This document shows, in pieces, positions 2,426 through 3,190 of a stretch of 64,000 bases of DNA. Source of the DNA: Flavobacteriales bacterium. Lineage in GTDB: Bacteria; Bacteroidota; Bacteroidia; Flavobacteriales_F; PHOS-HE28. The position numbers were made by a program, and so were the translations under genes. Each line of letters opens with the position of its first letter. The stretch's first letter is position 1. The notes below the pieces were generated by a model that saw only the letters and a program-made list of their open reading frames with translations, made no database searches and had not been told where the DNA came from. The DNA lies in NCBI GenBank assembly GCA_044346705.1, contig JBIIYP010000001.1, positions 148,634-212,633 of the forward strand, given 5' to 3'.

Positions 2426-3190
2426 CTATTCATAAATTTCATTCCAATCATAAGGTGCTGGATTAGTCAATTTAATGATTGTCTTTTCTCTTTCGTTAAG
2501 TCCATTATAATATTCGCAAAAGAACTTTAAATAATCTTCGCCTTTTCCCATACGCCAAAACAAATCGTATTTGTCAATATTGGGAAACTTATTCCAAGGT
2601 GTTTGTATTGTGTTGTCAAGCGGTTTGAAGTGTCCAAATTCTTTTAAGAATCCTCTTACTTCCATAAGCGCAAAACCTAGAAGATTAAGTCCACGCCAAG
2701 AATAAATATTGTCGATTTCGCTGTCTTCTTGAGAAAGTCCAACACCCCAAATGATGTCAACTGGACTAGCTTCAACTAAAACACTTTCACCAGTTTTTAT
2801 TAAATATTCAGCTATTTCAAGATTTTGATTGAACTTGTGAATGTTTCCAGTCTTGACAATTTCAAATCGTTTGGCGTTCCAAATATGTTCGTCAAAACCT
2901 AAAACTATTTTACCAAGTCCTATTGCTTCCTTGGGTGTCTTTGCAATCAAAATTTTTTCGTATGTTGACTTATCGTTAAATAGCAGTGCTTTTTGAGACA
3001 TCATCCAATGTTCTGAAGTTTTATAGGTCTTGTTTTCAATGGTGAATGGACTTTCAAACCATTGACTAAAACAAAACTTTCCTATTTCATTTTTGTATTT
3101 ATTAGTATGTCCCCAAAAGAAAATGAAATTCAATTCTTCTCCTCTCTCAAAGCTGTCGGTTAACCATTTTAAACTATAATGCTTTGTCAT
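2426..3190 (-). CDS. NADAR (DUF1768/YbiA-like) domain protein with about 90-aa C-terminal extension; cassette ORF
   Basis: FFWGH...FSQWF...EHWMMSQKALLF...VLVEASPVDIIWGVGL motifs typical of NADAR N-glycosidase/ADP-ribose-processing family; AT-rich. Confidence 0.7.
   Translation of the reverse strand: MTKHYSLKWLTDSFERGEELNFIFFWGHTNKYKNEIGKFCFSQWFESPFTIENKTYKTSEHWMMSQKALLFNDKSTYEKILIAKTPKEAIGLGKIVLGFDEHIWNAKRFEIVKTGNIHKFNQNLEIAEYLIKTGESVLVEASPVDIIWGVGLSQEDSEIDNIYSWRGLNLLGFALMEVRGFLKEFGHFKPLDNTIQTPWNKFPNIDKYDLFWRMGKGEDYLKFFCEYYNGLNEREKTIIKLTNPAPYDWNEIYE

Follow-up and report, generated by a model that had tools for sequence, protein, structure and literature searches.

A YbiA-type NADAR gene with an undescribed C-terminal domain in the recombinase-proximal cassette of an integron-like array from a Flavobacteriales bacterium

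We analyzed a 64-kb stretch of contig JBIIYP010000001.1 from a Flavobacteriales bacterium, hereafter the window. Close to its left edge, on the minus strand, lies an open reading frame (ORF) that starts with ATG and encodes a NADAR protein of 254 amino acids (aa); its span includes the stop codon. The gene immediately follows a tyrosine recombinase gene and is bounded by a GTT crossover at 3241/3240 and by an attC site of its own, in agreement with the initial annotation, which had described it as a first cassette. It has the single ORF, the attC, the G|TT boundaries and the cassette-level mobility of an integron gene cassette, and it is one. GC content is about 35% in this cassette and 30–36% across the first 3.3 kb of the window, compared with about 62% in the remaining window and the host. 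The coordinates of the gene, its domains and the surrounding recombination sites are collected in Table 1.

Table 1. Features of the NADAR gene, its cassette and the adjoining array (positions in the 64-kb window).
Feature	Position	Strand	Basis or details
NADAR ORF with C-terminal accessory domain	2426..3190	-	ORF call, NADAR profiles, AlphaFold2 model
N-terminal extension, residues 1-23, helix 7-15	3122..3190	-	Conservation, AlphaFold2 model
NADAR catalytic domain, residues 24-182 (E60, K67, K94, W104, R108, E140, D145, W148)	2645..3121	-	PF08719, alignment to 8BAU
C-terminal extension, residues 183-254	2429..2644	-	Conservation, cluster search, isolated-domain fold
Helical core of C-terminal extension, ~60 aa, residues 195-254	2429-2608	-	
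NADAR gene cassette, 955 bp	2286..3240	-	From TT of G|TTAGCGGC (integrase-proximal) to G of own attC R' box
attC of NADAR cassette	2278..2415	-	R'' GCCGCTAAC, L'' AGCATGCTAGCGATAGCCGC, L' GCGGCCATCGCTAGCATGC, R' GTTAGCTGC
attI-like junction	3225..3260	-	GCGCTAAC-CCGCA-G|TTAGCGGC; 72-108 nt downstream of recombinase stop codon
Tyrosine recombinase, 391 aa from MDKKVDK	3333..4508	-	Co-oriented with cassettes
attC of cassette 2	1278..1413	-	Cassette 2: 261-aa multi-pass membrane protein, ORF 1421..2206
attC of cassette 3	192..392	-	Cassette 3: 283-aa protein, ORF 397..1248

Assignment of the 254-aa protein to the NADAR family, as originally proposed, is secure. Residues 24–182 matched the Pfam NADAR profile PF08719 (DUF1768) over positions 1–162 of 163 with E = 2.2e-48, and the protein scored 165 bits against a cut-off of 35.1. 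The NCBIfam model TIGR02464 was also passed (154.5 bits, cut-off 73.7), and the same region was matched by the PADLOC NADAR component PDC-M42C (4e-40) and by PHROGs phrog_1017. AlphaFold2, supplied with 52 orthologues, gave a model that was confident throughout (mean predicted local distance difference test score, pLDDT, 92.4; predicted TM-score, pTM, 0.89). When this full-length model was searched with Foldseek, the only significant PDB neighbors were the P. nicotianae NADAR (8BAU) and E. coli YbiA (2B3W), each with probability 1.0. Target TM-scores of 0.72 for 8BAU and 0.76 for 2B3W indicate a YbiA-like alpha+beta fold. Residues Y5, W9, L10 and G17 of the N-terminal extension are conserved within the family, and N-terminal extensions of the fold are also found on the NADARs of P. 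nicotianae and G. lovleyi (PMC11543638).

Active-site residues were mapped with a phmmer alignment to 8BAU, using the residue list in PMC11543638; chain numbering in the structure is the numbering of that paper plus 2. Every residue of the P. nicotianae enzyme (PnNADAR) that contacts ADP-ribose or takes part in catalysis aligns to a counterpart: E43 to E60, K50 to K67, R79 to K94, W89 to W104, R93 to R108, E125 to E140, D130 to D145 and W133 to W148. E60, K67, E140, D145 and W148 are invariant across the 52 orthologues. The E60/K67 pair corresponds to the catalytic Glu/Lys pair of other NADARs (E88/K95 in E. coli C7, E43/K50 in PnNADAR), and E140, which lies within VEASP, aligns with E127 of the 8BAU chain (E125 in PMC11543638).

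The residue at this last position separates the NADAR groups. Schuller et al. (PMC11543638) recognized three of them: a YbiA group with Glu (E125 in PnNADAR), a DarT1-linked BC4488 group with Asp and a phage group with His. Because E140 is the YbiA-type Glu, and neither the DarT1-linked Asp nor the phage His, the protein belongs to the YbiA subfamily, and its active site is intact. YbiA-type NADARs are described as orphan, and the BC4488 subfamily alone is linked to DarT1 (PMC11543638); standing alone is therefore the rule for the subfamily to which this protein belongs. Several stand-alone types have been reported in E. coli alone (PMC11125620). This leaves without support the premise of the initial annotation that NADARs normally pair with DarT and that an orphan is remarkable, and the orthologues that we examined, in Runella and Sphingobacterium, likewise lie in ordinary chromosomal neighborhoods without a gene for an ADP-ribosyltransferase (ART).

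The accompanying observation, that there is no DarT-like ORF within 10 kb, held up. No ART or DarT Pfam family was found in the called genes within ±10 kb of the NADAR gene. Nor was there one among the genes that were called or scanned elsewhere in the 64-kb window, which are housekeeping genes or encode Bacteroidota proteins secreted by the type IX secretion system (T9SS). PADLOC gave no DarT match for the proteins of cassettes 2 and 3. With no adjacent darT1 among the genes called or scanned in the 64 kb, and with the Glu at E140 rather than an Asp of the D171 type, the locus does not have the makeup of a DarTG1 system.

The closest solved relative is PnNADAR (8BAU; Foldseek E = 1.7e-8, 30% identity; phmmer E = 4e-15). 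Like the 254-aa protein, it has the catalytic Glu/Lys/Glu set, the ADP-ribose-binding residues, an extension of the YbiA core and no link to DarT. Unlike it, PnNADAR is eukaryotic, is 189 aa long and has no C-terminal helical domain, its extension being N-terminal plus an internal insert. Hydrolysis of guanine-ADP-ribose has been demonstrated for PnNADAR, whereas for our protein the activity is a prediction. E. coli YbiA (2B3W) shares the fold (26% identity), the subfamily Glu and TIGR02464, but it is a minimal 160-aa core with no terminal extensions and is not cassette-borne; its gene lies within the LexA-controlled dinG-ybiB operon (PMC11125620). The BC4488 antitoxins of E. coli C7 and G. 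lovleyi belong to the same superfamily and would be expected to catalyze the same general reaction. However, they have a catalytic Asp (D171 in E. coli C7), a basic N-terminal extension that binds single-stranded DNA and an adjacent darT1 (PMC11543638), none of which is present here.

The protein was also said to carry about 90 additional C-terminal residues of unknown function. Such an extension does exist, and it is conserved and folds independently, but it is 72 aa long rather than about 90, and the first ~19 residues originally quoted as part of it (SWRGLNLLGFALMEVRGFL) are the end of the last NADAR helix in the alignments to PF08719 and 8BAU. Within the 254-aa family the extension has the motif PW..FP......D.FWRMGxGEDY...F..YY..L...E...I.KLTNPxPY.W..IY, which in the orthologue alignment is conserved as strongly as the catalytic domain. 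When the 60-residue core was modeled in isolation, five short helices were predicted (pLDDT 93.3, pTM 0.75), which describes an autonomous five-helix fold. The initial reading of an extra domain was supported. Searches of Pfam, NCBIfam, PHROGs, PDB sequences and BFVD returned no match for the domain, and structure searches returned no fold match for it in isolation.

A profile of residues 183–254 was run against 1.84 billion cluster representatives (clusters at 50% identity) and found 667 clusters at E ≤ 1e-3, 70 of them at E ≤ 1e-10. The domain is previously undescribed in the databases searched (Pfam, NCBIfam, PHROGs, PDB), and it occurs in hundreds of clusters from several phyla. Architectures were broken down for the best 149 of the 667 clusters. 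About 92 of the 149 are small proteins of at most 145 aa with little besides the domain. NADAR fusions, counted by a crude motif, make up at least 23 and probably about 30; an N-terminal hydrophobic segment is present in 11 representatives and a tandem duplication of the domain in two. Pfam confirmed that the domain is C-terminal to distinct, shorter NADAR types in three proteins (P0164, P0173, P0193) and N-terminal to NADAR in two others (P0208, P0227), and NADAR was the sole recurrent fusion partner identified among the proteins checked. The consensus of the wider family is PPW-x3-P-x6-S-x-GWRMGxGExY...W...L...E...Y....PEPxxWxGFY, with W, R, G and W invariant.

We infer that the domain recognizes a substrate or a partner and is non-catalytic, that is, an accessory recognition module which NADARs would have recruited repeatedly, because stand-alone copies occur in hundreds of small proteins and different NADAR types have independently gained it at one end or the other. 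Four loci with a stand-alone domain were heterogeneous, with no NADAR or toxin neighbor and no conserved partner. One match, a 2426-aa protein (P0139) with an apparent 14 repeats of the domain, was taken as spurious, with single-repeat E-values of 0.04–4. In Pseudoalteromonas (L015, 2956–6177), a 106-aa stand-alone domain protein is encoded within a series of five short ORFs that share one strand and have no Pfam matches, a layout that recalls a chromosomal integron array.

The arms of the NADAR attC form a 19-nt inverted repeat that is 95% complementary, and on the cassette strand the site reads GCCGCTAAC-AGCATGCTAGCGATAGCCGC...GCGGCCATCGCTAGCATGC-AAATC-GTTAGCTGC. The array consists of four cassettes and ends in host DNA ahead of a DEAD-box helicase gene. 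In all four, the first 9 nt of the cassette are complementary to its own R'' box at 9/9 positions: GTTAGCGGC and GCCGCTAAC in cassette 1 (NADAR), GTTAGCTGC and GCAGCTAAC in cassette 2, GTTGGCTGC and GCAGCCAAC in cassette 3, and GTTAGCAGT and ACTGCTAAC in cassette 4, whose R'' box lies outside the window, on contig L001. The same 9/9 complementarity holds in an alternative cassette on contig L003, whereas the R'' boxes agree with neighboring R' boxes at only 8/9, 8/9 and 5/9 positions. Complementarity between the start of a cassette and its own R'' box is the expected product of G|TT recombination of circular cassettes.

Contig L003, which comes from another sample, has a different third cassette from the R' box of attC-2 (1278–1286) on. 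Similarity to the window stops at 1281, and the alternative cassette, which encodes a 582-aa protein with a faint SMC_N match, joins exactly at the G|TT point. Cassettes are therefore exchanged in nature. In every contig that covers the junction with the recombinase gene, the NADAR cassette is the proximal one. Two further contigs, L002 and L004, keep the four-cassette array and have lost everything beyond window position 3401; they come from other samples and differ in what lies to the left (SSF transporter, TonB receptor), with the breakpoint 68 nt inside the 3' end of the recombinase gene. The other three cassette proteins (261, 283 and 184 aa) had no significant Pfam match. The cassette 2 protein shows weak NCBIfam similarity to an XrtN-system VIT protein (31.8 bits), the cassette 3 protein begins MGHWGTG, and the cassette 4 gene (1–130, minus strand) is cut at the window edge.

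The adjacent recombinase has an Xer-like catalytic domain and an N-terminal extension of about 120 aa, and it lacks the IntI-specific insertion. It scored 216.5 bits with the integron integrase model TIGR02249, below the cut-off of 265, and 232.8 bits with NF040815 (XerA / integron integrase), above the cut-off of 220. In the alignment to VchIntIA (2A3V), position 208 jumps to 247, so that residues 209–246, which form the IntI insertion between patches II and III, have no counterpart. The spacing across the insertion site, from GKGxKxR to HxLRH, is 58–59 aa in this recombinase and in the 33 of 80 relatives that have the motif pattern; the other 47 gave no pattern match. Relatives numbered at least 583 in a scan of GTDB species representatives, and our locus-level analyses used the 80 that were kept. 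Nearly all of these are from Bacteroidota, the closest being metagenome-assembled genomes of Flavobacteriales.

At 49 of these 80 loci, no more than 1.2 kb of contig follows the recombinase gene, although 8 kb is present upstream. Most of the 30 downstream flanks that we inspected have a hairpin followed by '...AC|GTTR', 40–170 nt past the stop codon. A first, stricter attC detector recovered two of the three window sites and gave two matches near relatives, and for a time the recombinase family seemed unrelated to attC arrays; reading of the flanks and a relaxed detector reversed that conclusion. The relaxed, home-made detector recovered all three window attC sites with one false positive in 64 kb. 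It found 31 attC-like sites in 250.5 kb downstream of the relatives, none in 522.8 kb upstream, and five in 802 kb of unrelated loci. At the rate in unrelated loci, about 1.6 downstream sites would have been expected. Downstream sequence of 2 kb or more was available for 36 loci, and 20 of these had at least one site, many sites being about 130 nt long, as in the window, and two loci read by eye (L046, L057) have R''/R' boxes and recurring cassette starts. Within the window, the sole match of the relaxed detector outside the array (40494–40552) is a short palindrome between two T9SS-tailed genes and is probably a terminator hairpin, that is, the false positive.

In 'inverted integrase' integrons, such as that of Treponema denticola, the integrase gene and the cassettes point the same way. 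These chromosomal integrons, and CALIN arrays (clusters of attC sites lacking an integrase), resemble the present array in having attC-bounded single-gene cassettes and a G|TT crossover, and a first cassette adjoining an attI-like site is common to the window array and the 'inverted integrase' integrons. Unlike the integrases of the latter, the window recombinase lacks the IntI insertion, is below the TIGR02249 cut-off and has the N-terminal extension of ~120 aa. Complete integrons are reported to be near-absent or very rare in Bacteroidetes (Néron et al., PMC9024848), and our literature searches found no description of an integron class of this kind. The data are suggestive of a possible unrecognized class in Bacteroidota whose integrase is co-oriented with the cassettes and lacks the IntI insertion. 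Recombination of cassettes by a recombinase of this family is a candidate activity, for which the pattern of sites is likewise suggestive.

Relatives of the NADAR protein itself are widespread. A full-length search gave 3617 matches, and the best 120 were all 248–303 aa long, with query coverage of at least 96% and identities of 57–98%; at least these 120, in Bacteroidota, share the full-length architecture. Named sources include Sphingobacterium, Runella, Botryobacter, Chitinophagales, Flavipsychrobacter and Kapabacteria, and the proteins are annotated 'NADAR family protein'. In Runella rosea and Sphingobacterium the orthologue lies among unrelated chromosomal genes, and at 24 metagenomic loci the GC content of the orthologue gene equals that of its flanks (0.28–0.46). 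The 254-aa protein is an ordinary member of a large, uncharacterized cellular family. NADAR relatives are also plentiful in viral contigs, but the C-terminal domain was reached in only one of the 80 best.

Two ideas about origin were rejected. Phages are not the main source: NADARs from viruses reach 50% identity at most, and the C-terminal domain is missing from nearly all of them. Nor is the family generally cassette-borne, an attC-like site being near only two of the 24 metagenomic homologues.

On the far side of the recombinase gene, the window contains five direct copies, 65–90% identical, of the 3' end of an ABC permease gene (10236..11783). They are at 4545–4623, 6140–6218, 8063–8141, 8789–8867 and 10229–10307, with longer 153-nt copies at 6144–6296, 8793–8945 and 10233–10385. 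The self-contained modules between them are AbiEi/AbiEii (4630–6118), a membrane protein with DUF2141 (6286–7790), a PIN/VapBC-like pair (8223–8757) and a PDC-S01 ATPase (8947–10173), and the recombinase gene is at the distal end of this region. The arrangement looks like repeated site-specific insertion at a gene 3' end, with each event re-creating the target. A 70-nt piece of 5' recombinase coding sequence (4357–4426) is duplicated (86%) at 6240–6309, beside the second permease-end copy, and a 17-nt inverted repeat (4395–4411 / 4536–4552; AGCAACGATCAACCCTG / CAGGGATGATCGTTGCT) brackets the recombinase start codon. These may represent a recombination site or what is left of a second recombinase copy. 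Farther away, sulfate permease (PF00916) is split over two adjacent plus-strand ORFs (46945–47433 and 47440–48516; profile positions 1–147 and 161–368), reflecting a frameshift, an interruption of the gene or a misassembly.

In our view, this is probably a gene for a stand-alone YbiA-type NADAR glycohydrolase with an accessory recognition domain, acquired horizontally as an integrase-proximal cassette. Here we infer its substrate, the role of its accessory domain and a benefit to the host. The N-glycosidase would split the N-glycosidic linkage that joins ADP-ribose to guanine (or cytosine) in single-stranded nucleic acid, like every NADAR tested, and related ribosyl-N compounds might be further substrates. 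In vitro, guanine-ADP-ribose is hydrolyzed by a myxobacterial YbiA and by each of the four NADAR types of E. coli and phages (PMC11125620), and YbiA-type NADARs also reverse cytidine-ADP-ribose (PMC12945103). The five-helix domain would recognize the substrate or a partner and take no part in catalysis. The gene is foreign to its host, a low-GC, promoter-poor cassette with its own attC, most likely from a low-GC Bacteroidota lineage in which orthologues are ordinary chromosomal genes. It was inserted at the recombinase-proximal position of the four-cassette array, and no cis-encoded toxin partner would be needed.

Several points weigh against this account. K94 (codon 2909–2911) stands where at least 90% of the 52 orthologues and PnNADAR (R79) keep Arg; it is the sole active-site difference from PnNADAR, at a position where the Arg contacts ADP-ribose, and the swap is conservative. 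The substrate is extrapolated from enzymes with 26–30% identity. Among the E. coli enzymes, in vitro activity on guanine-ADP-ribose does not predict protection in the cell (PMC11125620). The N-terminal hydrophobic segments in 11 of the 149 domain representatives also fit poorly with a purely nucleic-acid-directed role.

It is possible, but in our view unlikely, that the protein is instead a metabolite damage-control enzyme which, as described for E. coli YbiA, hydrolyzes reactive N-ribosyl riboflavin intermediates and has nothing to do with ADP-ribosylation conflicts. The TIGR02464 model that it passed is named 'riboflavin biosynthesis intermediates N-glycosidase' (an equivalog_domain model), orthologues at JGI are named 'ribA/ribD-fused uncharacterized protein', and the orthologues are single, conserved and seemingly housekeeping-like chromosomal genes. 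However, no riboflavin genes adjoin the NADAR gene here, in Runella or in Sphingobacterium. For a host of 62% GC, a foreign enzyme of the housekeeping type would also be an odd cassette, as the usual cargo of cassettes is accessory or conflict functions. YbiA removes guanine-ADP-ribose in vitro as well (PMC11125620), and the two activities are compatible.

We regard as rather improbable the suggestion that the gene is an orphan antitoxin or immunity gene, directed against an ADP-ribosylating toxin encoded in trans or against toxins from competitors or phage-defense systems. There are precedents in the orphan antitoxin-like NADARs that phages carry against DarTG1 (PMC11825919) and in the Streptomyces NADARs without ScARP that have been proposed as immunity proteins (PMC12945103). 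PDC-M42C, which the protein matches, is a PADLOC candidate-defense component, and the mobile cassette lies beside a defense-rich region (AbiE, VapBC-like, PDC-S01). Set against these are the negative search for ART families in the window genes and the YbiA-type Glu in place of the DarT1-linked Asp or phage His (PMC11543638). Neither E. coli YbiA nor a phage NADAR rescued cells from DarT1 toxicity (PMC11125620). The NCBIfam model 'NADAR family anti-phage protein' gave 32.8 bits against a cut-off of 240, and viral-contig orthologues that include the C-terminal domain are rare, as described above.

A more speculative combination of two ideas has, we think, a slim chance of being correct as a whole: the C-terminal domain would be an immunity module that binds a toxin or a target, and the antidote would circulate in a Bacteroidota-specific integron class. 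In the first part, the ~60-aa 'PPW...GWRMGxGE...PEPxxW' domain on its own, sometimes signal- or membrane-anchored, might neutralize ADP-ribosylating effectors by binding them. Its fusion to NADAR might then form a one-protein 'bind and erase' antidote, parallel to the macrodomain plus DarT-binding domain of DarG. The likeness to DarG is one of architecture only, a de-ADP-ribosylating enzyme with a second small domain; the catalytic fold of DarG is an unrelated macrodomain, and no similarity was found between its C-terminal DarT-binding domain and the C-terminal domain of the 254-aa protein. In the second part, the cassette-co-oriented integrase might recombine attC sites without the IntI-specific domain used by standard integron finders.

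The idea that the gene is half of a two-gene toxin–antitoxin module, with a neighboring cassette protein (261, 283 or 184 aa) as the toxin, is very improbable: the three proteins have no significant Pfam match and could have a novel ART fold, but each is a separate, independently mobile cassette with its own attC, the third is swapped in L003 with NADAR retained, cassette 2 encodes a multi-pass membrane protein, PADLOC gave no DarT for the proteins of cassettes 2 and 3, and orthologues elsewhere lack these neighbors.

The enzyme itself fits expectations for a known family, and the orphan-antitoxin angle adds little. The novelty is in the undescribed accessory domain and the non-canonical integron context. 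Repeated fusion of this domain to either end of NADAR offers a tractable handle on the cellular targets of stand-alone NADARs. Being alone is normal for the subfamily; the more unusual point is arrival on a mobile cassette, in an integron of Bacteroidota with a recombinase that does not carry the signature typical of integron integrases. Standard integron detection relies on the IntI signature domain. If this very large recombinase family truly recombines cassettes, integrons in Bacteroidota would be systematically under-counted, and the requirement for the IntI insertion would need to be qualified.

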